From contig CAIIXF020000001.1 of the NCBI GenBank assembly GCA_903813345.2, positions 9,176,001 to 9,240,000 on the forward strand: 64,000 bases of DNA. The letters are read 5' to 3'. This DNA is from Owenia fusiformis. Lineage: Eukaryota. Under the pieces are notes generated by a model. The model did no database searches, was not told the DNA's origin, and worked only from the letters and a program-made list of their open reading frames with translations. Shown piece by piece: positions 27,101 through 61,043 of the stretch (position 1 is the first letter of the stretch; every line of letters starts with the position of its first letter). The position numbers were made by a program, and so were the translations under genes.

Positions 27101-30100
27101 AGAAGAAAAGATTCTCATAAAGTATCAATAACATCATTTATTCATATCTGTAGTGCTCCAAAATTATCAAGACTATCACCATGGGCATTCTTTCAAATAG
27201 GATGTCCTTATTATCACCAACATCTAACCAGATTTGTTAGTTTTGAATAAATGAGGAAAAACATGGGACATTTTTAAGCCATTTGGGGAATATATGAACT
27301 GCATTTAGTTCACTTAATCATTTTCACCAACCAGTTCTATAGAAATCTATATGTTCCCATATGTCTGGCAAAATATTTGTACATTACTGATCAGGATTAA
27401 CAAGATGTTTGCGCTGGCAGTATGGTGATTCCATCTATATAAATTGATGAAGGATGAATTGTTTGATTGGTGGAATGTATCTGATACAACAGTTACAAGT
27501 GAGAACACATTTATCATTCACTATTTAGTAGTGACATCTTTGTGTGTTTCTTGTGCAAGGTGTTGAAATATGTCAATGCTTGTTGTTCATGGGTTTAGCA
27601 ACTACTGGATCCAGCCTAGGGTTCAGATCTCAAGATTGTATTTCACAGAAACATTCTCAAATACATTTTCTTCACTTGCAGTACTTAGTTGCACTAATAT
27701 AGGCAGCAGCCCCCCCCCACACTCCAATTAAAATGCAGATGCTTTATTTTTTATTTTTCTTCTAATATAAAATTGTGTATAAACCATGTTTACAAATTGT
27801 AATTTCTACATTGTCACCTATAATGCCACTGGCGATTGGGTCCCTTATGTATGACATGTACTTTTAATGATTATTGGCAATAAAATCTCTTTATGAAAAA
27901 AAAGTTGCACTAATTGATTTTCTCATGAAAAACTGTTGATCAAGTTGCTAATAATGATTATAAAAGTTAAATCACATAAATGAGTGAACTTCAGCACTTT
28001 TACGGAAAAAAGGTGACATCAATACATATCTACCTTTATGAACCAAATGATAACAGAATCTTTCTAGGGCATAAATTTTACATACCTTTAAAAGCCACGT
28101 GAGAACTGAATCTCTGTATGGCACAAACTTATTCTTATTCTTCCCAGATGCACTGTCTGCAAGAGCTGAGATAACCAAGCCTAATGTTGTCAAAGATCTG
28201 GAAAAAAGTAAAAATGATAAGTGAATTTAAATCCCCTATATCAGTGTATTTTTAGAGTGGATTGTATTATAATGGATTAAAATCCCATTCGCACTCTCAA
28301 ATCATGATATCATATGGTACATTTAAGAGTTTGGTGCTATACGGCACTGTTCGAGTATGGTTCCATATGGTACATTTTTAGTTTACAGTACCATACAGTG
28401 CTATATTTTACGCTGCTGTACAGTACTGTGGTACTATTGGAGATAGCTGTATATGCTCTAGAAAAGCTCCAAAAGAATAATTTATTTCTAGAGGGCTAAA
28501 CAATCCGGTAAATGAAACAATGGAATATCCATGAAAAGAGAAGATAAATAAGAGAGACATTTAAGGCAGCCAAAAACACATTTTGAATACATGTATGAAT
28601 AAAGCTACATAAAATGGCATGCATCATTCAATTACAGACTGAATAGAGCCACATATAAATTTGCATGATGTAAAGATAAATTCTTGAATAATGATTAATG
28701 ATGTTGGTTGACTTTTATCTGTCAAATGAAAGTTAATATGCTGACAAGCTTACAAGGACAATATAAATATTTCTACCAATTACTACATATCGCTATCAGT
28801 TTTTTATTAACAGCTTTGTTGGTTGGATGCAATAATCATACATTATATTTTGAACTTATATTCTATGTACTTTATATCACTCAGTAATCATTCATTTCAT
28901 CGGGAACAATAAAATCAAATCTAGGTATTGGAGGCTCAATACCCTTTTAAGCCATGGGATTCCAATAGATTATTCTCTGAATAACCAGTTAATATAATCC
29001 TAGCATTATAGTTTGATCATTTTCCCCATACAACATAGTAAAGTGTCTCCATGACGATGTGCTACACCATAATAGCTGAATGATAACCCCCGCTTTGTTG
29101 TATTCTGATACTTGACAAGCTTAATGTTATTCACCTCGACAAGTTTATTGATGAATAAAAAGTACCATGTGACCTTGAAAAGAATTCTTTTTAAAGATTT
29201 CTTCTGGCAGGAATCTTTTATAACCAAAAGAAATACAAGAAATCAATGTCATCAATGGTTAGAAGACATTCTGAAGAAATTCCAAATAATCAGAGGCTTT
29301 TACTCTAAGTAGGCTCGAGTAAAATAAGTTCTGAATATCCGGCGTCAGTCAGTCAAGCCTACAATATAGAAGCTTAAGGTAAATAGCCAGATTAGTCAAT
29401 GCAATCATCTATATTAGAAGGACTTTGAGTAGTATGAGGTAATCTTAGCTTGTCAAAAAGCTTTGTAATGTGTTCATCATATAATCATCTAAAAGATATT
29501 GGATATCAATTTATTTATTGACTCATAAGAACGCTCGCCGTAGAATTTCTGCGCTCTCATACTTTTGCAGTCACATTTCCCACGGCGGCCGCACGGCAAA
29601 TTTTAAATTTCTGTTGATAAACAATACTTATTTTCATTTTATTCACATCAGGACAATTTATAAAATAAAAAAAGACCGCAATTTGGCGAGCGTAGTTTTT
29701 CTACGCTCGCCGCAGAAATTCACTGATTTAATTGATCTGCAGTCGACGCACGGACTCCGTGCGACAAATGTGACTGGGGTGTTAGGAACATTCTATGATA
29801 GAGTTATTGTAGTCATTTTCTGGTCAACTACTTACTTATTGATGTTACTGCCCTCTTTGAGCCTGTCCCCCATGGCCCCCGTCTTCTGAGCACGCTCGCT
29901 ACCAGCCAAGTCAACCAATGACAGCTTACTCACTTTCTCACCCGATACCTACAAATATTGGAACAATATTAGACACATTGATATATTATTCATAAAGGAT
30001 ATGGCTTTAGTATTACCTTTTCACGGATAAATAAATAAACAAATTGTGCACTAATCTAATATAAGCATCCATTTAATTAATTAACTATTCAAAATTGTAA

Positions 30101-33100
30101 CATATTATATAATCAGACTTTGTCCATTGTATTCAATGTCAGAATAATGAACTAACAATACAAATACACACACAATACATACATATACAATACATACATA
30201 TGAGGTTCCAGACAGCTTGCCAAACCAGATCATCTTCTAACAAACATTTACAACATTTTGTTCTGACCATGTTTTGTATTGGTTAGAGTCCCTAATAGTC
30301 TTTATTTTTAAATAATAATCATGAATTAAGAGATTCCTCTGAAGGTCCTCTTTGAATTTCACTAATAGGGGATCCTGATTTGTGATTGTGTTTTGTAGGG
30401 TATAAAAATTCCAATATTATTTACAGTCGAATCTCAAAAAAAAAGGTCTTTTGAGATGTATGAATGTCTTTGACAGTGTGGCACCACAAAATGCAAATTT
30501 TTAATATGAAAATAAACCTCAATTCTAACGGAATATTTATTATTTTATTACGAGAGTGTTCAATGGAGGAGGTTTTGGCTTAACAATGAACAGATCAAAT
30601 CAGCAGTGACGTATATTCACAGTGCCATACATTGTTGGTCTTTATTCTATTGTTATAAGACCGATAAAGTACATAGGAGGTAAGTTGCAATCAGTCGCAA
30701 TTAGTTAGTTTCTTGTCTCCGCAGGACATTAACCTTTATACTCTTCATCGATTCATAATTGCCATTTAGGTCCTATTATCATTACATAACTAGCTCATAA
30801 TAACCTGATAACTCGAAGGAAATTATGGCTCAAAAGACAGGAATTACTTTTACTAATAAACTTCAAACCCTTGAAAGTAATGAAAGGTACTATATATCAT
30901 AATACCTGAGATATGCTAGGAGCAGTTTTGTCTATCATGGAGAAGCCCACTACTTTTTCTTTCTCATTGCAACAAAGAAAAAGCAATACCTACTTCATGG
31001 ATTAGTATATACTTTATCATTCATGTATAACCTTGACTCTGGTTAAAGTCTAATAATGCTCTGAACTATTGAAAAAGTCACAACAAAATATACTCTAAAA
31101 TGCATTTTCAATGCCACAAAATTGACGGTTATAGAATTTTGAATTATTCAAAGCACTAAGAAAGTATTGAATACAGTCTTTATAATTGTTTTCATCAATC
31201 TCATATTAAATATTCTTACATAACAATGCTCTTGCATTACTGTATATTTGACATTGTAATGGTCAAATACTGACCTTGCAATGGTCAAATACAAGTATAG
31301 AAAATGTGCATGAATAGACTGAAGAACTGTCCAACAAAGTAAAGAATAAACACATGAATGTGTTTTTCCTTAGTTTTTTCTGGAAACACCTTTGGTGCAT
31401 GTTTTGTTATGTGGAACAGAAATGAATTATAAGCTAAAATGCTCTAACTTGGAGTAGAAAGGAAAATTAAACAAGGCATTAACATGACAAAATGTCACCA
31501 CCTAGTTGATCACAATATTATTAGTTCAATCTAAGTAAGATTTGAATTTCTGAGAACTTGTAGATAATTTTGAAAAAATAAATTGGAATAAATTGGTCAA
31601 TTTTAAGCAAGTTGAAAAATACCTTTTTTTACCCTGAGAAGGTCATTGAAGGTGAAATCTCAAATCTAAAGTCAGATTTGAACTTCTAAGAACTTGTAGA
31701 TGATTTTGAAAGAAAATTGATAAATTTGTAGAGAGATGAAATTAAATCTTTTTGGCCTTGAGAAGGTCATTGAAGGTAAAATATTTTTTGACCTTGAGAA
31801 TGCCATTGAAAGTCAAATCTATGGCCAAATTTGAACTTTTGAGAATTTGTCTATGATTTTGAAAATTGAATTTGGTCGATTTGAAGCAAGTTGAAAAAAT
31901 ACCTTTTTAACCTTTTTTGACTTTGGAAAGGTCATTGAAGGTCAAATCTTAAATATAAAGTCAGATTTGAACTTCTGAAAACTTGTAGATGATTTTGAAA
32001 AAAATTGAAGTAAGTCTAAACAGTATTTGTTAAGTTATTGGAAGTTGTAAGAATTTGTTACAGACGCCGATCCCGAACCACCAACAACCATCAAAAGAAA
32101 ACGGAGACCATAACAATATGTCACCACTTTTTGGTAGGCAGCAATTTTGAATGTTTTTTCTTCTTGAAATACATGTATCAGCAATTCCTGAAGTTCGCAT
32201 TGGCTTACCAGGTTTATTAAAAGAGGACAATCCACAGTTGCTTAATTAAACAAGAACACAAACGTGTACAATATGTCCCCACCAATGGGTGATCCTGTCA
32301 AATGGATATCCTGATAATGAGTAGTCAAGACTTTATCGTTACAATTTTGGGATGGAAAATGCAAAATGGCCACCTTAAAATTTACCCAGAATGCCAGAAA
32401 ATTAGTCAGCTCTAGATTTTCATACTACGAACCTACCCTGAAAATTTGAAATTGATCCGTCAACAGTAAACAAAAAAATGCGTAAACAAGACTCTACAGA
32501 CAAGATTTTAGGTCGGAAAAATCCAAAATGGCTGCCTTGACATTTACCCAGAATGCCCAAAAACTAATCAGATGTAGATTTTCATACTAAGAATCATCCC
32601 TGAAAATTTGAAATTGATCTACCAAACGGTTCAACTGGAAATGCGTAGACAAGACTTTACAGACAAGATTTTAGGACGGAAAATCCAAAATGGCTGCCTT
32701 CACATTTACCAAGAATGCCAAAACACTAATCAGATCTAGATTTTCATACTAAGAACCATCCCTGAAAATTAGAAATTGATCTACCAAACGGTTCACCTTG
32801 AAATGCGTAGACAAGACTTTACAGACAAGATTTTAGGACGGAAAATCCAAAATGGCTGCCTTGACATTACCCAGAATGCCCGAAAACTAATCAGATCTAG
32901 ATTTCCATACTAAGAATCATCCCTGAAAATTTGAAATTGATCTACCAAACGGTTCACCTGGAAATGCGTAGACAAGACTTTACGACAAGATTTTTGGACG
33001 GAAAATCCAAAATGGCTGCCTTGACATTTACCAAGAATGCCCGAAAACTAATCAGATCTAGATTTTCATACTAAGAATCATCCCTGAAAGTTAGAAATTG

Positions 33101-36100
33101 ATCTACCAAACGGTTCACCTGTAAATGCGTAGATAAGACTTTACAGACAAGATTTTAGGACGGAAAAATCCAAAATGGCTGCCTTGACATTTACCCAGAA
33201 TGCCCGAAAACTAATCAGATCTAGATTTTCATACTAAGAATCATCCCTGAAAATTAGAAATTGATCTACCAAACGGTTCACCTGGAAATGCGTAGACAAG
33301 ACTTTACAGACAAGATTTTAGGACAGAAAAATCCAAAATGGCCGACAATAAAAAAGTGATGATGAGTTTTTGCTGATTTCTTCTTACAAAATTATCACAT
33401 ATAACTACTGTTAACAATAACATAGGCTATTACAACAAAGTACACCTGAAATTATTTATAAAGCTACTAAATAGTTAAAGTATGAAAACTGAAAAACACC
33501 ATTCAATATGATACAAAGTATTATCGCGCGCTCACTTTTCTTAAAACATTCAAAATGGCTGACATGACTGAGCTAACAGGTCCAAAACCTAATCAGATCT
33601 AGAATGAAGTGAGCTGAACAAGATGTTAAAGTTTTAAAAGCAACTGTGAAGCCGTTTTTCTTAAAGCTTGCAGACAAGGATTTTAGCATTTGACTTCAAA
33701 ATGGCCGACAGGAAGTAGGTATCGTGATAATCTTTTTTCATCCACATCTGTATGCACTCATAAGTTATCCCTGAAAATTTGAAGGTGATATCTGTAGCGG
33801 TTTTGGAGAAAACTGCCGGACGTACGGACAGACGGACAGACAGACGGACAGACAGACGGACAGACAGACGGACGGACGGACGCGCCTAGGCCGACAATAT
33901 GGCCCCACACTATGTGGTGGGGACATAAAAAGGTAAGGAAATAACACATGTCTTCAAACTTTATTTTATACCACAGAATAGGATATCTTAAAATATTTTG
34001 TTTCACTACTATCTGGTGTCATTAGGGTAAAAGCTAATAATATAGCTCAACATATATGTTTGTTCAGGAAAACTCAAACTTTAACTTTAATACATCCCCT
34101 CAAATACTATAAATACCAATAATTCTTATCGTGCACAGTGTTATTATTGGTTATAGATTGAAAATGTTTCATAACCTAGTTACAGGAATACAAATCAATC
34201 CAACCTAACAAAATATCACGCATATACACCATGTCTGTTTTGTCAAGAATTGTCTAAATCAGGTTATCTACAATATTATAGCCATTTTCTTCAATAGGAA
34301 CATTTGGTATGCTTATTACCAAATTATATAAATGATTTTCTTATTGATTATCAGTACTTGTCGATGTTCAAAAAAGAGATTTCTTGAGCACAATGAACCT
34401 TAAGTAAGTAATGGTTGCTTTGGGGACATTTACTGTTTCTAGCTTTTTCTGCCAATAGGACGCATGTTTTTGTGAGATATGATGTGCACTCTTTGTCACA
34501 GGACCATTTCAATGTCTTGCCTTCTAAAACACATATTTTCATTGAGAACACTATCATATCAATTGGTGTAACAAGTCAAAGCAGCCGTGATTTGAAAAGT
34601 TTAATTTCACCAATATTGCGGAAAAATTTGAGAGTGGGACATCTCACACCTGGCAGCTGAAAGGTTATGTGATTGTACTTTCTGACCCAGAAATCTGAAT
34701 TTGTGATTTTTAAACTACAGTCAAAAAAAAGAAAAGAAAAACTATACACTATTATAAACAGTAATAAAGTCATTACTATTAAAAAAATCAGGAGTCACCA
34801 AAACAAGGTCTTCTATTTAATTTACAAGTCTACAAGAGGAAAAATTAGCAGGTATTTTTCATATGCAATAATTTCTTCATCCCTCGCATACCCTAAAATG
34901 CACTTATTACACTTGGCACTGGCTGACTCATCTTAGCTCTCCAGAAAAGCATTTTGTCTCATAAATCAGAGGCTCTCACAAGTGTTAGACAAGGGGACCT
35001 AAATCAAGAATGAGGTGGATGATACCATATCAGGAAATTCTCATGGAAAAATAAAAGAGCCCTGGGAAATGGTTCAATAAGTTTTTTATGATGTTAATCA
35101 ATGATCTTCATCCTACAATGTATGTTGTCCCTTGGTCTTAAATTCTTATCAATTTTTTAGTCCAAAAAATTCTTGATTTATTGAAATAAACCCCAGATTT
35201 CTTTCAAATTATCACATGATTTTTCATGAGAAAATACAGTAAAACTTTAATAAACACCTCTCTTATAAGTGAACACCTGTTTCTAGTAGATACCTTTCCT
35301 CCACACATACTTTTGTATAAATTACCCTTTCTGTATTGAAATGTTCAATATACACAGGTTTTACTGTATATAAAGAAGATACCATGTACTCTAATATCCT
35401 AAGAGTATACTTTATTTTTATAACTCCTACTTCTTCATTAATTAAAAACCTGATGAAATTTCCTTTTTTATATTGACATAAGCTTTCTTTTTGTGGATAG
35501 GTATGCCATTGTAATTACAGAAGAATAACAGCACAATTGATGTAATACTTATCAATACATTGAATTGACATTTTGTCTTTCCATGTCTCGGTACAGCTTA
35601 GTGATATAACAAATAATGGTTCTTTATGATTATGTTCTTTTCAAAATACCTTTTATCATCATGTTAAAACCCTTTGCATAATTAAACATACCATCCATTA
35701 GACAGTTTGCTACACATTTTCCTAGGTACATAAACAACCAGTATTTCATCTATTATTCATTTCTCCTTTCTATTATGCTATCCAACCCTTTGATAATAAA
35801 TATCAAGGGTTTCTACTTTGCTTTGTAATCAAGAGTAGAAAGGGAGAGACATATGATCAGGAATGTACTCGACACTCTTAAAAAGTAGGAATGATAGAAA
35901 TTTGACAATTAGGTTCAAATACAATCAAGATTATGATAACATATACGTATCAACAGTGGAACTCCTTGTATAGGCTTCAATTTGCCCAAACAATGAATAG
36001 AGGATTAAAGTGTCATCATGATACAACAATTAATCTTCCCATTCTACCTTTTCATTTCATGATATACCCTTACATGATAGATATCCTAGGAAGATCAACA

Positions 36101-39100
36101 ACTTAAAAATGGATTTAAGGTGCAGGTTTTACTGATGGTTATTTAGAGTAATTTATAACAATAAAGGAAACAAACACGGCTTTAATATGCAAAATATCAC
36201 CACCTGCCATTTGATGCAAAATGCCATCCGCTGAAAACTGCTAAAAGAGTTGGAGACTATAACAATATGTGACCACTTGTTAAGGTGACATAAACATCAT
36301 GTTAATATATTTCTCATATCTTTCCATTTCTTATATTTCATAAGATAGATCTAAATATCAATTTAAATGAAAGATGAGGATGAAAATGCTTTCAGAAAAA
36401 GCCTGGGGACGAATAGCATACACTACATTAGTTTATATGGTTAATAGATTTTTTGAGTACCCTAACTAGAAAAAACATATGGATTTACTCCTAAGGCTTT
36501 GATGCATGTCCTCGGAAAAGTAATTACTAATAAACAGACAATTTTATTGTTTAATAGAATTTTTTGGGATTCATGTAGACACAATTTTACCACAGGGTGA
36601 AAAATGTTTTTCCGATGTTATTGACTCTATGAGTCATCAGAAAAAGATAATTCCCATTTTCCAGTTTTCATGCATCAAGGAAGATTTCCAAATCAAAAAG
36701 TTAACTATATATTAGTACCTGATTAGTCCCTGATCTATCACAATTATCAAACATATTTGAATGTCTGATGACCAAAGTTTTTCTTGATATTTTTCTTCCT
36801 TTATACAAATCATAACGACAACATTCAAAATATAATCAGGATTTTCACTGAGTATATAATAAAAAGTATACATGTTAATCAATAACATAAGATAACAAAC
36901 ATTTCAATATTATCATATTATGCAAAAATAAATTTTATTTTTGTTTTTAAATCAATTCTAAATTAGATAAATTGTGCATTTTTACATATATTGCAACAAA
37001 TTAATTATAGCTCAAGCCTATATTCAAATTTCATCAAAAATGCACAATGGCTGCATGTTGGCTATCACTGCCAAAATGAAAACTGGTGAATGAAGAATAT
37101 AAAGACACGTCTGTTTTATTCAATATAAATAATAAAGGGTAAAATAGCCATATGGGTGGATTCCACACTCTATTGTTATGCCGACTTCCTCACTTAATGC
37201 GGACAACAATGACACTTATAACAGACAAATAAAATCAATGTCATTTCCTCATTAACATATCATAGTTAATATTGAATTTTGTAAAAGAATGTTGCATGCA
37301 GAAAAATCACTTAAAGCACTATAGTTAGTTGTTGTTCTGAATAAAAAAAACATATTAACAATTTTACATGAAACATGAATTGAATTTTGGAAAATGTAAT
37401 CACAATGCCCCAACAGTATTGACTATTCTAAAATGAATCAGCATCAGATCTTTAATCTTTTCTTCTTTGCATCACAAAATAATAAAAATAGGATATATAT
37501 AGATATATACAATCAATAGATCAATGCAGCACTCTTCAAATCAGCGTACAACAGCGTCCCAACAACGTAATAAAGTTCAAACTTGTTTAAGTTGACACAA
37601 CAACTTTCTTTTTCTTCTTTTTCTTGCAAAGTTCTATCGGTGGTTTATAGTCCTTTGGAGCATATGGAGCTGTGTCTTTTCTTAAATGCCTCAATAAGCT
37701 AAGAAAATCCATGTCTTCTAATTTCTGTGGCTCCTCTACAGTATTCACAGATGAATAACTTTCAGTCATACTGTTGGTTTCTGTGCCATTAGTCGGTTTA
37801 TTCAATTCCTCACTGATCAGGCTTTCAATCTCATTATTGTCAGCATTATCATCTACTTGGACCTGAGATGGGGTCACTGGTGTTCTACTGGAGCTACCAT
37901 GTGAGCTGTTGGAACTTAATAAAGCATATTTTGCATGAGGAGATGAATTACTTCTGCTTCTTAAACTAGCTGTAGAGTCTTCAATGCTCACTGATGGTTT
38001 GTCCCTATCATGATCAGGCTCTTTATCCAACGAAATATCCGGATCCGACAGATTAGTCCTATCTTCGGGTTTATTTTCATTGTGAAGTTTACTCTGAGAA
38101 TTTTTCCTTTTAAGACTAAGCCGTCTTTTCTTTGGAGAGACAGTTTGTTCCTCAACAATATCTATAGCTCCAGATTGTCCAGTTGGTGGTCGAGACATAA
38201 CACGACTGGATGAAGTATTAATCCCCATGTTTGAACTTTCATTGGTCTCACAGTTAGAGTGTGAACTCTCCGTTCCTTCACAAACAACTTTATGATTCGT
38301 GCTTACTGCATGATCCGATTGTAAATATCCTGTTTGATCAACATCATATTGACAATCAATCACATTGTTTCCCAGGACTTGTGGCAATATTGCACTACTA
38401 TTATTCTCAGCTGTTTCATCATTGACGCTAATTGAATTGAAAGACTGTAACCCACAGAGATCACTCTTTAATGATAAATTGTCAGAGTCGCACTCTATTG
38501 GTAAGGGATTTATAATAGGCCTCCTATAATAATCATTTGATTTCCTAATTGGAGTCCCCATCTTTTCTTTTGTTCCAACCACTGTATTATGCATATAATC
38601 ATTACTTCCTTGTTTCGCACCATCCAATGAACTTGGATTTGCATAAATGATCGATCCGGTTGGTGAATTTTTTTTACTTTGAATTGCATAAGAGTTGTAG
38701 GCCGAATCGGTCGAATTATTTGTTTTAGGTGAATTGTTATGATCATCAAATTTGCTTTCATCTTGTCTATCCAATTTTAAAGACTGTGCAGACCCGAATT
38801 GAACAGTTTTAAATGATGCTTCAGAAATGCTCCTTGAATTAGAATACACAGCATCAGCAACATTGTTAGTTAAATATGTAAGCTTTACATTTCTGCTTGC
38901 TTCCACATGCTGATCTTCATTCAAATCAGGAGATGTAACAACCAAATTGTCTATTTCATCATTCAAGTTCTCTTCTAATCTTGTTGACATATTGTTATTC
39001 ATAGTAGTTTCTTCATCACTATGTGCATTCTCTGAGCTCCTCGTAACATATAAGTTAGAAGCTTTTATTTCCTGTAAACTCTCCTCTGAACTAACCTTCC

Positions 39101-42100
39101 CCGAGTGTTTATTCCCCATTGTCTCCTGATAATCATTCAATCCTCCACTATTGCCACCAACCTTTGTTACGATTTCATTATTTATACTTAATAGATTCAC
39201 GGCTAATTTGAATGAATTGCACGATGGAAATTTATTATTCAGCACCCTATTTGTTAATCCATCTTTCCATTCAGTGTTTGATTTATTCAATAGAATTTGT
39301 TTCTTTTTATTATCTGCTTCACTAGGTCTACCTTGTTTCTGAAATCTCGCTATATTGATGTTAAATAAAGTTTGTTTTAAACACTGATTATTTATTACAT
39401 TCCCATGCTTGTTGCTAAGGCGATCAAAAGTCCTATTGGCGATACTTTGATGGATAAGAGTTCGTTTTATAAGTTGCAGTATCAGGTTTCTTCATCAGCA
39501 TTCTAAAAATATAATAAAACATCAAATTCAGAGCAACTATTATAATTAATAAAGAACCGATGATGATGTTTAATAGGTAAGTGTCGTTCATCAAGACATG
39601 CCCTCGAGAAACTTCTTTCAAGTGGATATTTCAAAACTCCGGAACATATTCCATTAAACCCAGACCTAAAATGTAGTTTAAAAAATAGCCAGAAGGTTTT
39701 TAATGTAACTACTTACCACCTGAACATGCCTACATTATTTCACACTTTCTCTAATAGGAGCACTTCATAAAACTAGGAAAATCTATAGAAAGACACGTTC
39801 TTTATATAAAGGGGTATTCTTTTCCAACGGATGACCAGAAATCAAATACATATCTAATCAGATTATTGATTGGATTCATTAACAAAGATCATTATGCAAA
39901 CATGAAAATTCGTAATGCAAATAATTCCATATTTCAGCATTTATTATAGGTTTTCTATATGAATGAATAAGTCAATAAAGGACTCTTGGGAATATATGGC
40001 GCTCAGTTCAGACAGAAGCAGAAACTGATACTTTTGATCATTATTTGCTTATCATTTTTCCTAGACGTCACTTTAAAACTAGCATTACAGGCCTTTGGCT
40101 TATAATCAATCAATGAGAAATATTTTAATTTTAACTAAACACATTTTCTGAAAAATTTTGGATATGTTCTCAACAACTCATATATTGTGTCTATAAATCA
40201 ATTAAAAGTAACAGAATGTACAACTCCCATGACTATGGGAAAGAGAAGGTTCAAATCATATGCTTTTAATCAATTAAGTTCAAATCATGCGACTAATTAC
40301 TAATTGTCATATTTAGAGACATAATTCGATGGGATAATAAGCAAAGCTAGCCCAGCTGATGATTCACCCACCTTTAATTAATCAACGATCTCCCCCCGAG
40401 AGGCAAATTCCATGAAACAAAATATTTCCTCTTAATGTCTCTACTCTATAACATATCAATATTATAAATATGAATCAAAACTATCAAGTGGATCAAATAT
40501 ATACTTTTAAGAAACTGTGGCTGTTTTAAGACATTCTATATTTAAGAGCCCATGTCCACCCCTGTGCAATATGCATGCACAGTGAATTGTTAACAAATCA
40601 TACTGGAAAAAGATGAGTCCCACTTTTTGTCACATTCCATGATATTCTTAACATCATATGGTAGTTCAATATGGCATAATTTTGAGATTTTATTGAAACT
40701 GAATTTTTTTTAATAATAAAATCACCAAATTTTCAAAAAATATGATGTCTCAATAAACTTTGATTAGTTGTTCATGATAACCAAAAGCATGGGTTGAACA
40801 ATCTCAAAAATAAAGTCAATCAGATGTCAGAATATATAATAGTCAAAACAAACTTGCAATACCTACTTATTTTGCTGACACTGTCAACTCAGAAGAGAGC
40901 AAAAACACCAACATTTTAACATAACAATCATTAACAAGGCATTTACATGCAAAATGTCACCACCTGCCATTTGTAACAGATATTGAATGCTGACTGCCGA
41001 ACACCATCCAAAAGTAGTTGGAGACCAGAACAATATGTCACCACTAGTGGTGGTGAGATAAAAAATATTCTAACACTATCTGTTTTCGACTAAAAATACT
41101 ACTTCAAAAGACATTTATGCGATTTTGCTTGACAACATAAAATTGAAGATCCCATTTAACTCTTCAACAAGAACTTGTGGATTTTTTATTGTCTAAGTGG
41201 CAACACAAAAAGCTGCAAACTGTAAATACAAATTGTTATATTATTTTACCATGTACAAAATGACAAATAAGTCAAACTGAGAAATCTGATTCATGTCATG
41301 GAGTTCAAAATTATAAATATTCATAATATATCATATATTATAAAATATTTTTTTGTAGCATCCGATAAAAAATGCAGCTTGGAATGAATGTACTGGGTCT
41401 TGCTGCAAAATAATAATACACCCTTGAATAGAATATCATGAATGAAAAGACATAAAAATATGGGACAAAAAATCAAAAATGGCCACGTGAAAATTTCCCA
41501 AGTATTTCCAAATCTTATCAGTTCTGAAAATTTGAATTGCATCTATGAAACAGTTTGGCTAAAAATGCGTAGATGATATTAATTACTCAACTATGGGATA
41601 AAAATTCACCAAGACCAACTAGGACTCACATTTTACAATTTGCCAATTAGTATGATTGGGCCAACTAGTACATTGTGAGCACTGACAGACAGTCCCACGT
41701 GTAACTGACTCAACCATGTGGACTAAGTATGTCCGAATTCCTCTTGAAAAATACTGCTAATTTTTAAAATGCCTATGGTAACTTAGGCAGTGCTGATATA
41801 AACATGAATAAAATAATTCAGAAAAACTATACATTATACTAAATAGATATAAAGATTAAATATTTACCTGATGACTGCTCGTGTCATTCAGATACATCAA
41901 TGTAATTGATCTTGACAATAGAAGAGTTGTCCTCCCTTTTATTATTACTTATAGAATGGTGTTGTTGTTTCTCTTCCTCTCACTTCTGTCTCAACGGAGT
42001 GTAGGGATAGATGTTAATAGATAGTTTCCGTGTCTATACGAAGCATGTATGCCCTACAGCTGATTATTGTTTTAACTTATGGCGTTAGTGATTTTATCAT

Positions 42101-45100
42101 AAAAGGTAAGGTATAATTAATTGATACAGTGAAAACTGTCAATTAGAACACCTCTGTAAGTTGAAAATCTCCTTCAGAAGAACACTTCAGAGTCCAATGA
42201 CACATTGATAAAATGTTATATGAACCTCTGAAAGTTGAACACCTCCAAAGTGAAACACCTTTCAGAGGAACAAAGGTATTCTACTTACACAGGTTTTACT
42301 GTATATCAAATTATCAATATTCCTATAGGCATTCTGCTGATATCAAAAGTTGTGTTACTCACTCAGTACCGGCATTTCACTTTAAAACAAATCCATTATA
42401 CATTTAAAGTATCTATTATACATTTTCCCCAATTAAGATGAATAAAGAACTACAGTTCTTTTTTAATCACACTTAGCATGAAGTCTGTCGCAATACCATT
42501 GTTATATATTTCTATCACCTTTTATTCTGTGTAACGATTTATTTTAAATACTTTGTTTTCCTAATGTCACGGTATCTTTGAGGTTATAGACGGGCTCAGT
42601 CTAAATCACTTGACATTTCTGTGATGTTTGCCGTAGAATTTTAAATCGCAGATAATGAAACAGAATACATACGAACTAGTGATTTAACAATTATGACTAA
42701 AAATAGAAAATTGCTTCAATAAAATAAAATAGCACCATGGGAGGGTACTTTTAAAGGAAGAAAATTTTGAATTTTATCATGAATAATATTGTTTACCAAA
42801 TAACAGAGCTACCTGCAAAAGTTAAAGGAACATTCCTTGCCAGACTATTTCTCTCCTGATATGGTAGCTACAATCATATATATACTTTACATATTTAGCA
42901 AAACACGGGAATTTTTTTTCATATGGTCAATATTGATCATTTGAAAATGTAGTACTCATTCCCAGTAGGCTGCCATCTTTTCAGATTTCTTTCAGGAAGT
43001 GATGTCATCGACTCTCACCTGTTATAACCTTGTCTATTACAGTATAGGAAAGAAGTACAAAATCACTTCTAAACAAGAAGCCCTTATCTTCTGTGTAAAA
43101 ATATTTTCAGGAGTTGTCAACTTAGAACTAAAGAAGAGATCATCAAAAGGATTTTAATCATAGACCAAATTGAAAAAAATTTCAGCTGGTTTAGTAATTC
43201 TAATAGCTCCTTTCCTAATGTTATATGCAAAGTTGAGAGTCGATGACATCACTTCCCGAGTGAAATTTTAAAAGATGGCAGCCTACTGGAATTGAGCACT
43301 ACACTTTTAAGTGATCAATATTGACCATTTCAAAACATTTTTCTGTTTTTTGATAAACTTGCAAAGTATGTATATGGTTATAGCTACCATATTAGGAGAG
43401 AGATGGTCTGGCAAGGAATACCCCTTTAAGGTACTTTTTCGGGACTTCTGTAGAACAAAGCATGGGTGAACATGGGTCAAATGGCTTCCATAAAAATGAC
43501 CAAGCATGTCCAAAACTTATTGGTTCTTTTTCATACCAAGAAACATACCTGAAAATTTCAAATTAAAATCAATCAGTCGAGTGGTTTGTCTGGTAAGTGC
43601 AGATAACAAAAGTAAGAGGACCCCATCTACCACTTGAATAGTAACAACAGCAAACGGCTTATCTGAAAATCTGTAAGGATTTTGCCGGATGTTGTTTCTA
43701 AAATATGGTATACAAATCAATGTTGTACTTTTGTACTTTGGGCAAAACGTGATATTTCATAAAAGTGGTTGAGGCATTTTAAGATCTTGAGAAAATTTCT
43801 GCTGAAACTTTTACAAAAGTGTATAGTTGTTGACAACTTCTATTTAGGGGTGTGACCATAACAACCATGTTCCATATTATGAATACTGTACTACCAAGTA
43901 TTATACATATCCCATCAAGGATATTTTCAAGATATTATGGTATTGAACGCATTGGTTGCTTAACAGCAAATTCTACTTGTAATTTTGTCACCTTCTTCAA
44001 GACACATCTACCTTGAATAGTTAATTAATCTAATAGCGTAGAAGAGGGATATGAAAGTCAGCGTGATCTCGTACAAACACCCTTATATTGATTCATGGAA
44101 TCGGCAAATAGTTATTCATAAGTCTTCAAATGGAAATCACACTATGTGTTAATTAACGCACCTCTTACATTAAATCAATACTATTGGACTCTTAATAGAA
44201 TTCATAGAAGACAATTGCTGAAAATACAGAAAAACTTAAACCCAATATAGAAAAAGGTTCCATATTGAGAATCGTCAATAATAGCCAAACTTGAAAGGAA
44301 GCATACCTTATTGGAAAAATAAATTATTATAATCATAAATATATAGTTTCTTGAGTATTTGCCAAATTATTTTCAAACTTTTTCAAATATGTTTTGAATA
44401 TAGAATCAGATCATATTTTTGGCCCTAATCTAATAACTGGCATTAAAGTATTAGAAATTACATTTTATGAGAAATTGTGACTTATTTTGAATTCATATCA
44501 GGATCTTTCGTGAAAATTCCTTCTTCAGACAACTTGCATTTGATTAAATTTAAGATTACATATTTATGAAAAAGTGGCAGGAATTTTGAATTGAGCAGCC
44601 ATACTGGACATCCCTTCTTGTGGCAAGAAACAGACAGAAGGACAAATTGATGGCTTCTCAGTATCCTTATTCAAATTTTGTCCCGTGGGATATGAGTCAG
44701 CATAATAAAAGTTTATGTAAACATGTAAAATCCTCCCCCTTGGCTCCAGAAATAAGAACCAAATAAAACTGAATTGCAAATATCAAAACTAATAAGCCTA
44801 TTAAACATGAACACAAAGCGATAAGTAATGAGAGATGAAGATATGAAAATCATTTGAGATTAATTTTTGAGGAACAATGCATGAACAGACCATTGCAGTG
44901 AGAGAAACAAATCCAAATAATTATTGATTTAATTCCACAATTTACAATTTAATCCCTCAATCCGGTTGAATTGTTGCCTTAGTAACAAACTATAAAACAG
45001 ACATGCCCTTGAAAACATACTGTTCAATAGGCAGGCCCTTGGCAACATACTTTGCAAAAGGTAAAACCTTGACAACATATTGCACTACAGGCAGCCCCTT

Positions 45101-48100
45101 GGCAACATACTTTGCAAAAGGTAGAGCCTTGGCAACAAACTTTGCAAAATGTACAGCCTTGGCAACATATTGCACTACAGGCAGCCCCTTCACAACAAAC
45201 TTTGCAAAAAGGTAGAGCCTTGGCAACATACTTTGCGTAAGGTTGAGCCTCGATAACAACTGCACTACAGGCAGGCCCTTCCAACATCCCAAATGATATG
45301 CAGACAATTGGCAACATATTATATACTAGGCAGGCCCTAGACATATGTTCTGCAACTGAAGAATGAAAAGCTGCATGAAAAGCTGCATGTACAAAAACAA
45401 ACAATTGAAAAGATTATGGTTTTTACCCCTGGGAGAGATTCTCTTTGTAAAGACATAGAATCTTTTGCGATAACACATGTAAAATACCTCATCACTTAAG
45501 ACAAGCATTGAGTATAGTTTAAGAAACAATAGACATTCTATATAGATAAAGAGTAGATCGATGACTCATTATGCTAACATGAAAATAATAATGTGTACAG
45601 CTCTTTACGAATGAATCACTTCTATATCATTCTTTGCAAAATCCTCATATAATATACATGTAATTAAATGTATATCAGATATTATTAAAAAGCAGTATAT
45701 CCGACCATCTCTTTCATGCGAACACCTCTCAATGTGAACACTTTTTCTTGATCCCAAAATTGTGATCTCTCATTAACTCAAATATTCAAACAAATCATTA
45801 ACATGCAAAATGTCACCACCTGCCTTTTGTTACAAACACCAAACACAAACTGCCAAATGCTGTAAAAGGTGTTTGGCATTTGTAAACTGTAAACACCATG
45901 CACAAAAAGGTTGGAGACTATAACAATATGTCACCACTTGTGGTAGTGAGAATAAGACTGAAATGCGAACACACACACTTTTGGCCAGTCCCAGAAGCAT
46001 TCAGATTAGAAAGATGTTACTGTATGTCCTAACAGACAGAGGTATGTTGATTATATACCATAAATGATGCAAATCCTATGATTAATATTAAACGAGGCAT
46101 CAACATGACAAAATATCACCACCTGGAAAAGTGTAACAATTGTTACAGATAATTGACAACTTAAAAACTTCTTAGTGGTAGTGAGTTCACAAAATTATTG
46201 CCATAATTTTGTCATGATATCCACAATGGGGTCAAAGTCTATCAAAACTATACTCCCCGGCCCCTAACCTTGTTCGATGGTGTAATGAGTATACAAAAGA
46301 AGACAATTCAAGTTAAAGTGCATGTAGTTATCTTTATTAATCTTGTTAAAACAAAGTGCATGTCAATCAAATTCTTAAAATGTTGATACATATGTATTAC
46401 CACCACCAGTATGTGTACAGTGAAAAAAAGTTAACAAACTCTATTGTACCAATGTTATAAAAATGTAACTCCTTAAATTAAGTGATCAATCTTTCTTGAC
46501 ACTGAACAACAATTGAAATGGCACCATTGTTTGTACAATGACTAATACTTGTAAGACTGCTATTAAGAAATGGGTGATTTATAAAATAACACCACTGCAA
46601 TTTAAAAGTATTAAACATCACAGAGAAAAAGGTGGCAACCTCAAGTGAAAAACAGAATGAGAAAAATAGAATAAGTAACCTTAGCAACAACCAGGAGAAA
46701 CAAAAGGAGGTTTAAAAACAGGGATTACAGTAAGAATTGACCTAGTAATAAGCAGAGAACTAAAAAATTAATAAGGATATCTTTATTCGCCATTCTATGA
46801 GAAAGATAAGAGAGTAGCCTGTTAAAACAATACTTAATCCTCTTACGGATTGTGTACCACAGGATGTGGAATAAAAAGAGTACTTGGCAGCCTGACAATT
46901 AAGAAACAATAAAACGGGAAAGGCCTTGATAGATGATTAAGTTCATCGTTATCTGTATTGGCTCAAGAATCATAGTTTTAACTACATTTAAGACAAGTAT
47001 AAAATATGATGTCAATATCAAAAAAAAATAGAAACACTCCCAAAAGATGAATATAACACTGAGAAAGAAAATGTATCTTTTCATATGTCTTCATATTTTT
47101 GCATCTTTGAGTATTATTGTGACAACCGAGTGTCCTCCGCAATGTTCAGTATGTGACTTGGAGGGGTTTATAACTAAAGCTAGATGCACTGGGTTATCAC
47201 GTCTAAATGACCTACCTCTAGAACTGCACGAACTGACACTGGAAGATGGACAACTAGAGACGGGTGGTATCAATAATGACACATTCAGGTCTTTAACAGA
47301 ACTACAAAGACTAACAATCCAGCGCTATGGTATCCAGTTTATAGAACCAGGGGCATTTATGTATCAAACCCAAACGTTCCATTTAGAGATAAGTGGGAAT
47401 GCACTAGTGGAACTGAAAGCCAGTAATTTTATTGGACTTGGATCACTTACTGACTTATACCTCACTGGAAACGGAATAAAATGGATAGAATCCGGAAGCT
47501 TCCTAGAATTAAACAAACTTGAGTATCTCTACTTATCAAGAAATGATCTGACCAATATCTATGAAGGGATGTTCGAAGGGCTGACATCATTAAAATCTCT
47601 GTATCTTTTAAAAAATTCCATCCAGCATATTGGTCCATATGCATTTAGCAATCTCCAAGCTATATCCCGCATAGACCTCCCTGATAACAATCTCCTTGCA
47701 GTAGCCAACAATGTATTCAGTGACCTACCCTTGTTACGCTCCCTAGATCTGAAACGCAACAAAATCTATGGAATCGAAAATCAAGCTTTTAATGCTACGT
47801 CACTTCAGAAATTATTTCTTCAAGATAACAATTTACACACACTATCTGCTGAAGCCATTCAAAGTGCTGCGGGAACACTGAATCAAGTGATGGCCTCGGG
47901 TAACAATATAAAGGTCATCTTCAAGGGGACATTTAGTAATCTGACCATGACCCGTGTTGACCTTTCATATAACAACATGGAGCTGATATATCCAGGAGCA
48001 TTCAGTAATGCACATATAGAGCTATTAATTCTAGATAGTAAGTAACAAATACTTTTTATTTCTGTTTTTATAAAAATATTCAAAAATATTTTGTATGGTA

Positions 48101-51100
48101 TGGCTATGTATGTGAATGTAGACAAATTAGATGAAAATCCATTGAGCAGTTTTTCCTGCCATTGCGATGACAGGATTTATCAACTTTCTTCCAAAATGAG
48201 TACCAGAAAAAAGACAGAACTTTCCTACGTAAGTGGTAGGGCTCCAACGGCTTCATAATTCCTCAATTGAGGTTCATGGTTTTTATCTTTTCGGTTGTAT
48301 TTCAGTTCGAGGAGTCGGTCCTTATTGCACTTTAATGAAAAAATTCAGATAACTCAAACTAACACTTCATCTAACAAATTTGTTTTTTCACGCATACCTT
48401 TCTCATGTATTATAAGAACTTTACACAACCTGCATATGGTCTTGCCCATAACCATTAAGAAACCGAACCGTATAGTTAGGAAACAAACGGACCAACTGGG
48501 CCCTAAAAAAACAGTTCATTGCGGTTTTGGTTTACCTTCAGAGCCTCAGTAAGTGGTAGATATAGAGGGATCAAATAAATCAGAAAAGTTTATGTCATTT
48601 ATTAATATAACCATCAAGAAAAAGCACTTAGAGTTCGAACTCATAGTGACAGAAAACCTCGAAGATGACAGGATAAAAATATTTGATTTGCTAATTGAAA
48701 ATACTAAACAAACATTCATATATCACTTAAGTAGGTAAATATTAAGAGACACACATCCAAAATATTGATGCATATTTTCAATTAAAATATCAGATGACAT
48801 AACAGTAAACACAGAAGATTATATCAATCAATATATACCTAGATAAAGTATAGACATACTGTATTTATCATGTGTATTGTTGTATTGGTATCAAAATTAG
48901 CCATTGAGTTTAACATCACATAGTTTCGTTCAAAGGAATAATAGAAAAATCAATAGCTAGTATACATGAATGGTGTGAGAATTTTGTAAATAACAATGAT
49001 ACAATCCCAATTCTGAATGGTATTTCCTGACATCTAAAACCACATCAATAAATTACATCCTCTGGTCAATTTTTCTCATATCCACAAAAATAAGCAAATG
49101 CAATTGTTTTGAAATCACAAAATAAAATCAAAGATTATTGAGCTGATCATTGACATTTTCTGGATATGATGTGACAGGTAAAGTATGGTACAGGTTACCC
49201 CCTACTCAGGTGTTTTGATCGTTGTATTAGAGCTATCAAAATAATCGTTATTATCGACTCTTGTATTTGTCTATAACAGCTTTGACACATTTGAAATAAT
49301 TGTTTTATTAAGATATTACAATAAGATATTACAACAAATAATTGTGTCTGATATAAAAATTAAATACACAATGACATAACATTGATCTTGGAGTAAATAC
49401 CAATGTTGCTATAGTATCATGTTTCTTGAGAAAAACAACAAAAGGAGTGGAGAGAAGGATCTGTCAATCAATAGTATGAATATTGAGAGAAAATAAAGAA
49501 CCTTTTGGAGTTGAATCTAAGACAAGGTAAACGGAGAAAGATCTCTGTACCCAAGTTGCATAATGTAATGTCCAAAATAAGAACAACATAAGAATAAATT
49601 GCTATTAGAAATAAACAAGCATATAACATAAGAATAAATTGCTATTAGAAATATACAAGCGTATAACATAAGAATAAATTGCTATTAGAAATATACACGC
49701 GTATTAAACTGCAGATACCAGAATTCAAAATTGTAATCCAAAAATTAATCAGCTTCCAAGCGTGATATCATGCAAAACCGATTCAAATCCTTAATTGAAT
49801 CCGTCATTTTTCTGCAATTGTAATTATGTAATGTGATAAGGGTTGAAGAGACAGATCAATATGAATATGCTTCAAATAAAGTACATGTAAATAAAGTTTA
49901 CAAAAAAAATAAACAAAAAATTGAATACGCTTCAGGATTAAGTGTTCCAAGGATCTTATACAAGTTCAAGTTACTCTATTGAGTCAATAAAATAATAAAA
50001 ACCTGCGACTTGAGGCATTTCCCTGATTGATTAATTGATTTACAAATTTGAGAATTCTGACATTTGGAACATGCACGTTTTTCGTGTTGTAAAGTTGTTT
50101 TTCCATAATCATAAAAGACGTTTATATATCAATAAATGGATTAACCCATACATGTACTTTAATCATAATAACTCCAAATATGATTTTGCTTTTGGAAATA
50201 TTAAATTCCATGTGAAACAGATTGGTAAGAATATGTTCAAGAAGTTTATATCAATTAAGAATTTAGCAGACTCATATACTTTAATTATAATAACTCTGAC
50301 CTGGTAATACGAGTTGTGACTTGATTTAGGAAATAATAAATTCTATGCGAAAAGCATTAGTTAAAATTTGAAAACTGATCCCAAATGAATTCCCAAAGCA
50401 AGTATAGATTTGCTGACATGTCCATCTAGATATCAAAGAGAAGGCTTTAGTCATTCAAGTACATGTACATATACAGCATCATTGTGTATGTATCTAAAAC
50501 TGAAACTTCTCTCCTTGAGCTTTGAGCATGAAAAGTTCCATTGTAAGTGATGGGTTAAGTCAACAATTAAGCACTTTGATAAAAAAAAAGAATAAAAGAA
50601 AAAAAAAGAAAAAAAAGAAAAAAAAGAAGCAAAAACATATTTAAACATTACATTTATATTCATTGAAGCAGGCTACTGATAGTCCAATAAAAAACATATT
50701 CAGCGGAGAAGGTTTTTCATCACTGCTATACCCACACCCTCTTTGTCTTAAACTTTCCAACACAAGTGACAATTAAAAGAGAGTCTGGTAAACCAACTTT
50801 TTAGTATCAATATGTGTCAACTAGGGGTCCCACGATACATTATGAAACGATACGATACGTATCTCGATACTCAGGTCACGATACGAGCAACGATACGATA
50901 TATAATAGTGTAGTTGAACCGGGGGAGGGGGGGGGGTGCAAAACTGACGAAGCTGAGGTCGAGTTGAAAGTCTATCACTTGCTGTGACATTTGATTAAGA
51001 TGCAGCATAAAAACTATTGTCAAGTATCAAGCCTACCTGCTGAATAGTAGCCAGCTATGCATATTTTGCAATATTTTTTGAAGTCCGGCTGTGCTTTCCC

Positions 51101-60793: not shown

Positions 60794-60881
60794 CTAGAAA
60801 ATAACAACAAATGGATATATAGATATAGAATAATGCATATAGTCTAATATATCACATGTGCATTTTCATGAAATACATGTA

Positions 60882-61043
60882 CAGTGAAACCTGTTAAGTA
60901 GAAACACCTCTGCAAGTGGAGCACTGTTCAGAGTCCCAAAACCAACTGACTTAATGTTAAATGAACCTCGATAAGTGGAACACCTCCCAAGTGGAACACT
61001 TTTTAGAGATACCAAATGTGTTCCACTTAAGAAAGTTTTACTG
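60882..61043. mobile_element. TA-flanked CAGT…ACTG MITE, same family
   Basis: TA|CAGTGAAACCT … AGTTTTACTG|TA; interior similar to 42127-42301. Confidence 0.75.

Follow-up and report, generated by a model that had tools for sequence, protein, structure and literature searches.

How does a reading frame of about 1.9 kb without a single stop codon come to lie in the intron that divides a kinesin motor domain, and does it encode a protein of its own? In this work we have investigated a window of 64,000 nucleotides from Owenia fusiformis (assembly GCA_903813345.2, contig CAIIXF020000001.1, positions 9,176,001 to 9,240,000 of the forward strand; all positions below are those of the window), which carries the KIF13 gene on its minus strand, and specifically an open frame on the same strand at 37587..39491. 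An earlier note on this DNA had described the frame as a "hidden" gene for a disordered protein of 510 residues with membrane anchors at both ends or, alternatively, as a terminal exon of KIF13. Everything which that note described was found in the sequence: the stop-free frame in AT-rich intron (the GC content around it is 0.33-0.36), the first ATG at 39119, from which a 510-residue product beginning MGNKHSGK is read, the basic motif at residues 329-339 and the C-terminus with its cysteine and polylysine run. The frame is real protein-coding sequence. The reading which we favour, with a probability of about 0.6, is that of a separate gene restricted to its lineage, which lies in the KIF13 motor intron on the sense strand; the frame would be its main coding exon and probably its last.

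The length of the frame is far outside what chance would provide. Of the 8613 stop-delimited frames in the window none is longer, the runners-up having 337, 240 and 186 codons, and at the window-wide stop frequency of 0.067 per codon only about 6e-16 frames of at least 634 codons are expected. For the body of 510 codons which begins at the ATG, the probability of being open is 5e-18 at the local base composition, and this body contains no in-frame stop, whereas its other two frames have 29 and 77. Length is not the only evidence. Guanine is distributed over the codon positions of the body in a coding-like manner (0.28, 0.149 and 0.176 at positions 1, 2 and 3). A codon model was also built with 1565 training codons, of which KIF13 supplied 992 and a leucine-rich repeat (LRR) gene 573, one high-scoring segment pair (HSP) having been dropped for a stop, and 447 intronic open frames served as the null. 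The body scored +0.085 bit per codon, which was reached by 13 of the 447 null frames, and held-out 70-codon pieces of real exons had a mean of 0.139 with a standard deviation of 0.128. Hydrophobic residues account for 23.7% of the product compared with 46.2% in random open frames of this region, and Asp, Glu, Ser, Thr and Pro together for 41.8% compared with 23.0%. Could the frame be open for a trivial reason? We rejected the possibility that it is the antisense shadow of a plus-strand gene, as plus-strand frames across the same stretch encode at most 72 residues. Tandem repeats were rejected as the cause too, there being only two short arrays, one in the lysine run and one in the 3' flank.

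To place the frame within its host, KIF13 was mapped by tblastn of three KIF13 proteins, from Ostrea (P0052), Solemya (P0016) and Capitella (P0010), and the exon junctions were placed by a guided search. The gene comprises 20-22 minus-strand exons in the window, which are spread between about 60.8 and 1.1 kb. Its switch I exon, which matches Pfam Kinesin at E=2e-11 over profile positions 177-215 of 327, and its switch II exon are separated by an intron of 30.7 kb (29949..60658), so that the motor domain is split between these two elements. The open frame lies wholly within this single intron and on the strand of its host. The proposal that coding sequence lies within the motor intron of KIF13 is borne out by frame length, codon usage and host exon mapping. 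Pairs in which one gene lies wholly within an intron of another have been surveyed for mammals (PMC11694760). The Owenia locus is similar to such pairs in that one KIF13 intron contains the whole frame with its stop as well as a possible poly(A) signal, and it is different in that the nested unit lies on the host's strand and is phase-compatible with a host exon. Because strand and phase agree in this way, chimeric transcripts of host and nested gene are possible. Our search of the literature for KIF13 with a nested gene turned up only unrelated work. As to the host model itself, its junctions at 8338..8903 (minus) are probably misplaced. The KIF13 exon there is weakly conserved (HSP 8682..8903, with 33-40% identity), and a pyrimidine tract is missing at the inferred acceptor 8338; these sites were omitted from the splice matrices used below.

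Is this protein really a hidden one? It is not, since a protein identical to the 510-residue product letter for letter (P0002) already stands as a predicted protein in NCBI, NCBI nr and UniRef. A second public entry, P0003, has 595 residues, lacks a methionine and equals the frame from codon 40, starting with QTLFNI... at 39374; both entries derive from one contig. No splice acceptor was found just before the P0003 start (39374, minus), and P0003 looks like a 5'-incomplete gene call which reads through position 39338. Beyond these records the protein stands alone. A phmmer search against 1.84 billion representatives at E<=0.001 returned only the protein itself, and so did a word-indexed search among proteins of 348-1110 residues; when shorter fragments of 30-279 residues were searched in the same manner, 0 of 518 candidates passed. 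The open reading frame (ORF) accordingly makes up a single protein cluster among 5.8 billion clusters and 1.84 billion representatives. Pfam gave no family at E<=1 for the 634-residue frame and a sequence search of the PDB no match at E<=10. In the ESM Atlas the best score for the whole protein was 0.78, which is at the noise level, and residues 431-510 yielded nothing usable. Rfam had no match over the whole window, and the peptide MGNKHSGK was found in no paper of the literature searched. Descent from KIF13 sequence was considered as well and rejected, blastp against 120 kinesins having given E values of at least 2.7.

What can be concluded from the absence of relatives? In this respect the protein resembles the orphan genes of PMC7660931, a paper which treats homology-detection failure and lineage-specific genes whose relatives go undetected. 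The lack of relatives is weak evidence of youth, and a disordered chain, which evolves much faster than a protein such as KIF13, could have diverged beyond recognition. Such a protein may have outrun detection because even the nearest KIF13 proteins that we fetched are only about 70% identical; this is the best full-length value, over 1077-1156 aligned residues, in a set including Pomacea, Solemya and Argonauta. The 70-residue KIF13 motor exon is closer to its counterparts, the best matches from molluscs and an annelid being 89-91% identical. When this exon was compared with the proteins of 124-2000 residues in the collection, the best match was at 91% and none was at 100%. As the collection holds no identical match even to this exon of the animal's own KIF13, the protein searches are mute on expression.

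The frame is single-copy, as far as the window and the protein clusters extend: no second copy was found in the window, which agrees with the single cluster at the protein level, and the multicopy repeat family that the earlier note had wished to be checked was seen in neither. We also agree that the frame has no transposon motifs, there being no Pfam family, no copies and no retrocopy or repeat signature. A retrocopy was rejected for two reasons: no poly(A) tract precedes the 20-nucleotide direct repeat present at 37109..37128 and 39276..39295 (17/20 identical), and no parental paralogue was found among the 1.84 billion representatives. At the frame itself neither a poly(A) tract nor a target-site duplication signature was found. 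Repeats of about 130 bp at 36173..36294 and 40933..41062 flank the frame some 1.4 kb off on either side and might recall a long terminal repeat (LTR) element. This possibility was rejected too, as they are 73% alike, are members of a dispersed family and show no inverted repeats. Would it be possible that the frame no longer works, being a recently inactivated gene or a single-copy foreign or mobile insertion which has yet to decay and was called for its length alone? A frame of 1.9 kb facing a stop probability of 0.075 per codon would be expected to decay quickly in the absence of constraint, and the residues encoded here are hydrophilic and strongly depart from a random make-up. Signatures of a transposon, a retrocopy or a virus were all absent from the frame, and the search of 1.84 billion representatives gave no paralogue to serve as retrocopy parent. 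An explanation of this kind would nevertheless agree with several of our observations, namely that the searched protein sets hold no relatives, that Pfam recognizes no domain, that base composition at third codon positions is at the intron level, that the head of the open frame has no methionine and that dispersed repeats surround it. We consider it unlikely.

More questions are raised by the 5' end. Upstream of the ATG at 39119 the frame continues for 124 codons, which contain no in-frame stop, whereas the other two frames have 15 and 19 there. Codons 52-124 would be open with a probability of 9e-4 and codons 1-51 with one of 0.019. These two parts differ in codon usage: codons 52-124, from 39338 to the ATG, are body-like, with 4 of the 447 null frames scoring as high, and codons 1-51 are null-like (165/447). 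The P0003 entry, in which the frame is coding from codon 40 and thus through 39338, speaks for an upstream start as well. Such a start needs a spliced 5' exon, because there is no in-frame methionine upstream of 39119. On the other side, the ATG has a good context (GAGACAATGG, with A at -3 and G at +4), and the cumulative score of body versus null falls to about codon 55, remains flat to about codon 113 and then rises steadily, near the ATG at codon 125. This late rise, together with the public 510-residue model and the ATG context, speaks for the annotated start. Our view is that the public 510-residue model probably has a wrong or incomplete 5' end, and that the myristoylated N-terminus, one of two live options as judged from the sequence, is doubtful.

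We then asked how the frame might be joined to other exons. Weight matrices were built from 18 donors and 17 acceptors of the 20 inferred KIF13 junctions, 2 donors and 3 acceptors having been dropped as apparently misplaced, and candidates were ranked against all GT (1757) and AG (1584) sites of the big intron; with leave-one-out scoring, the true acceptors averaged 6.2. Four candidate sites, the acceptors at 39338 and 39502 and the donors at 41868 and 39096, are usable in principle and none is outstanding, so that sequence alone does not choose among the models. Donor 39096, if used, would make MGNKHSGK a tiny first coding exon. In front of donor 41868 an ATG opens a leader in frame to 39338. 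We did not accept 41868..41897 as a unique upstream first exon, as an in-frame ATG leader to 39338 is offered by 2 of the 8 best intronic donors.

Could the frame be a part of KIF13 itself? Truncated host isoforms are known to arise from nested genes and from poly(A) sites within introns (PMC11694760). In the present case, splicing from 60659 to 39338 followed by intronic polyadenylation would give a kinesin cut after switch I, which would lack switch II and the microtubule-binding half and carry a disordered tail of 583 residues. The earlier note had pointed to TTTCAG/AAA at 39338 as an in-frame phase-0 acceptor that would allow this. Position 39338 is indeed the start of a codon, it meets the phase-0 donor GGG/GTGAGT of the switch I exon, and the junction is in frame, reading ...AASG/KQGRPSE. 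Such a phase match occurs by chance in 1 of 3 cases, however. Similarly, the acceptor, TCAATATAGCGAGATTTCAG/AAA, lies with its score of 7.6 within the range of true acceptors, but it is an ordinary one, matched or exceeded by 30 of the 1584 intronic AG sites. The strongest acceptor nearby, 39502 with a score of 8.0, leads from 60659 to a stop after 6 codons. That the frame and KIF13 share a strand, that the frame is open upstream of the ATG and that codons 52-124 are body-like all speak for such an isoform. No fused protein was found among proteins of 348-1110 residues, a range which covers the fusion of about 780 residues, and the two-thirds of a motor domain which it would retain (Pfam to about position 215 of 327) would be unlikely to fold. 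Of the proposed terminal exon with its novel tail, phase and signals have thus stood up, but a fused protein on record is wanting and the acceptor is undistinguished. We hold this isoform, too, to be unlikely as the explanation of the frame.

The stretch in front of the big frame offers another possibility. An adjoining frame at 39436..39630 encodes a charge-free stretch of 21 residues with a mean hydropathy of 2.52, followed by RMLMKK, 17 more residues and a stop, and the strong acceptor 39502 falls inside it. Might a protein that crosses the membrane once have this stretch as its transmembrane segment and the big frame as its cytoplasmic tail? The +1 offset between the two frames would have to be bridged within 39433..39491 by an assembly indel, a recent frameshift or, least likely, recoding, and no such frame change was observed. 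The hydrophobic stretch itself is unusual, as its hydrophobicity is matched by only 5 of 316 null frames and 0-1 of the 316 pair such a stretch with at least three Lys or Arg in the next 10 residues, and a membrane tail would account for the big frame staying open upstream of its ATG. Over the transmembrane and juxtamembrane part there is a match to Pfam Syndecan (PF01034) at E=0.0044, but with 17.4 bits it lies under the gathering cut-off of 25.2 and does not place the frame in that family; hits at E<=0.01 also occur in 2 of 76 other intronic frames, one at 6.8e-5, so that the match is at noise level. Against the PDB the 65-codon frame had no match at E<=10. Its codon usage is null-like (77/445), and so is that of codons 20-51 of the big frame (87/445), which would be needed as coding sequence. 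By eye, no donor-acceptor pair of matching phase and workable intron length was found: GAT/GTTTTA and AAA/GTATCG, the sole GT sites past the hydrophobic stretch, give introns of 18-32 nucleotides or the wrong phase, and a U12-type intron fails on phase. Nor was an ectodomain exon recognized in any of the 76 minus-strand frames between 39.6 and 60.6 kb. A membrane protein of this type seems to us quite unlikely.

What kind of protein would the nested gene encode? The 510-residue product is rich in Ser (15.7%), Asn (9.8%), Asp (7.5%), Glu (7.3%) and Lys (7.3%), has an isoelectric point (pI) of 5.26, a net charge of -18 and a grand average of hydropathy of -0.97, and contains no hydrophobic run of six or more residues. 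Its mean normalized hydropathy of 0.393 is on the disordered side of the charge-hydropathy boundary at 0.426. AlphaFold2, run without an alignment, gave a mean predicted local distance difference test (pLDDT) score of 39.4, with 433 of the 510 residues below 50; it placed helices at 37-57, 68-93, 431-438 and 472-482, the last with a pLDDT of about 50-62, and three short low-confidence strands at 247-260. Composition and this weak single-sequence fold suggest that the product is largely disordered. The earlier description of a disordered protein was therefore borne out by composition, charge-hydropathy and low pLDDT. The K-K/R-x-K/R pattern of a nuclear localization signal (NLS) occurs twice, as KKRR at 330 and as KKKK at 499. 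Within the basic patch at residues 329-339 there are RRLS and RKNS sites, and eight SP or TP sites occur in the product. It was the patterns alone that were tested, and the names attached to them, such as NLS-like, are those that we take them to carry. The seven lysines near the C-terminus, where a 9-nucleotide repeat, TTCTTTTTC, lies at 37606..37625, could bind acidic lipids or serve nuclear import.

The idea of a membrane anchor at each end fared unevenly. N-myristoylation requires a glycine right after the initiator methionine in a context which the PROSITE-type pattern gives as G-{EDRKHPFYW}-x(2)-[STAGCN]-{P}. The N-terminal sequence MGNKHSG fits this pattern, but the start itself is doubtful. 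A C-terminal anchor did not hold up, since no CaaX box or other recognized lipidation motif was found; the sole cysteine nearby, residue 498 of 510, lies 13 residues from the end, where the chain reads VVVST. Proteins of the MARCKS, BASP1 and GAP-43 type are natively unfolded, membrane-associated acidic chains which bear a basic patch and a lipid at the N-terminus, and the effector domain of MARCKS has aromatic residues. The 510-residue reading is similar in having the Met-Gly pattern, an acidic unfolded chain and a basic, serine-containing patch. It differs in that its own N-terminus is uncertain, that its basic patch lacks these aromatic residues and that it has no sequence relationship to these proteins, Pfam having assigned it at E<=1 neither to the MARCKS family nor to any other. 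Small GTPases of the K-Ras4B type are anchored by a polybasic C-terminus with a lipidated cysteine. Here a cysteine likewise adjoins a run of seven lysines near the C-terminus; in contrast to K-Ras4B, there is no CaaX box, the cysteine precedes the lysines and stands 13 residues from the end, and a GTPase domain is absent.

We propose that transcription of the nested gene would begin inside the intron, at a promoter of its own or at a short 5' exon spliced to an acceptor like 39338, and that its transcript would end past its own TAA at a nearby poly(A) signal. The product, of 510 to about 590 residues, would be a largely unfolded acidic chain (pI 5.3) in which Ser, Asn, Asp and Glu abound, with two basic patches (residues 329-339 and the cysteine with its seven lysines) and a short C-terminal helix. 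Judged by composition and short motifs, it may be a flexible adaptor regulated by phosphorylation, with the basic patches binding to acidic molecules. Given a start at MGNKHSGK and a myristate on Gly2, the partners would be lipids of the inner leaflet; failing that, they may be importin or nucleic acids, contacted through the NLS-like patch. The identical 510-residue public protein, the A-3/G+4 context of the ATG and the absence of a fused form among proteins of 348-1110 residues all speak for a separate gene.

Several points weigh against a separate gene of this kind. The public database entry may be an ab initio call. No relative was found in the protein sets searched. GC content at the third codon positions (GC3) of the body is 0.29, which is near that of the intron and under the 0.42 of known exons, a low value that would fit a gene which is weakly expressed, young or evolving fast. 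Doubt is cast on the annotated start by the 124 open codons upstream of it (P of about 2e-5), and six out-of-frame ATGs between 39406 and 39136, of which the one at 39136 opens a short frame overlapping the main ATG, would load a long 5' untranslated region. A single-sequence fold is weak evidence for disorder, and the function which we propose derives from composition and short motifs only.

Table 1. Positions in the window of the open frame, its candidate splice and poly(A) signals, the host exons and other elements of the KIF13 introns
Feature	Position	Strand	Details
Stop-to-stop open frame	37587..39491	minus	634 codons, then TAA at 37587..37589
510-residue coding sequence (P0002)	37587..39119	minus	ATG 39119..39117 to TAA; 100% identity to public entry
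In-frame upstream extension	39120..39491	minus	124 codons, no stop, no Met
Basic patch, residues 329-339	38103..38135	minus	NLS-like K-K/R-x-K/R; regular-expression match only
C-terminal module	37590..37709	minus	helix 472-482, Cys498, seven Lys (37605..37625), VVVST end
ATTAAA hexamer, possible poly(A) signal	37451..37456	minus	131 nucleotides past stop; background 2.3 such hexamers per kb, hence weak
Acceptor TCAATATAGCGAGATTTCAG/AAA	39338..39358	minus	TTTCAG/AAA, first exon base 39338; score 7.6; 30/1584 AG sites as high
Acceptor	39502	minus	TTTTAG/AAT; score 8.0; 25/1584 AG sites as high or higher
Donor	41868	minus	CAG/GTAAAT; score 9.4; 8/1757 GT sites as high or higher
Donor 39096	39091..39098	minus	AAG/GTTAGT, directly after MGNKHSGK; score 9.3; 9/1757 GT sites as high
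In-phase ATG leader before donor 41868	41868..41897	minus	ATG at 41897, in frame to 39338
Adjoining 65-codon frame	39436..39630	minus	+1 to the big frame, overlaps its first 56 nucleotides
KIF13 switch I exon	60659..60793	minus	ends ...LVDAASG, phase-0 donor GGG/GTGAGT, last base 60659
Next KIF13 exon (switch II)	29836..29948	minus	starts at 29948, phase-0 acceptor
LRR gene exon 1	47044..48042	plus	Pfam LRR_8 E=3e-47, 6 stretches
LRR gene exon 2	53021..53740	plus	by eye, hydrophobic membrane-spanning stretch and tail; weak sub-cut-off TMEM154 and DAG1
Dispersed repeat copies, about 130 bp	36173..36294, 40933..41062, 45787..45951, 22268..22315, 32087..32128, 19979..20016, 31470..31503		73-95% alike, in KIF13 introns
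Tandem array	32316..33342		162 nucleotides x 6.3 copies
Tandem array	55921..56733		135 or 289 nucleotides x 3 copies
Tandem array	45006..45287		30 or 90 nucleotides x 3-8 copies
Tandem array	57031..57102		(CGGA)18

The same KIF13 intron holds a second nested gene, on the plus strand, which encodes an LRR membrane protein in two exons. Several tandem arrays and dispersed repeats lie in this intron as well. A tandem array at 20075..21927, also in a KIF13 intron, has a period of 136-148 nucleotides (also 284) and about 13 copies with 86-89% matches. Long but spurious open frames arise on both strands from several of the tandem arrays, as at 56354..56710 and 44993..45413, and one such frame drew a sub-threshold match to Pfam Nairovirus_NSm (E=6.8e-5). 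A repeat of 180 bp with 71% identity is present in the big intron (42125..42303) and just upstream of the switch I exon (60880..61045).

Lastly, what does this locus mean? Genes nested in large introns are common, and so are disordered proteins restricted to one lineage; the finding is in this sense a modest one. It would be an uncharacterized nested gene, and nested genes which affect the isoforms of their hosts through premature polyadenylation are already known (PMC11694760, PMC3192792). Its practical value is that it flags a probable 5' error in the public model, which alters the predicted lipidation of the N-terminus. The position of the frame, on the sense strand, in a compatible phase and inside the motor domain, makes it a clear setting for the question whether host and nested gene compete through splicing and premature polyadenylation. 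The same exon might even be used twice, from an intronic start for a free, N-myristoylated, MARCKS-like disordered protein and, through in-frame splicing from the switch I exon and intronic polyadenylation, for a tail fused to a motor-dead KIF13 head, which we consider very unlikely; if it were so, the nested unit would also throttle the output of full-length KIF13. If the nested gene truly encodes a myristoylated, polybasic and disordered protein, the MARCKS-type design would have been invented independently in a lophotrochozoan.

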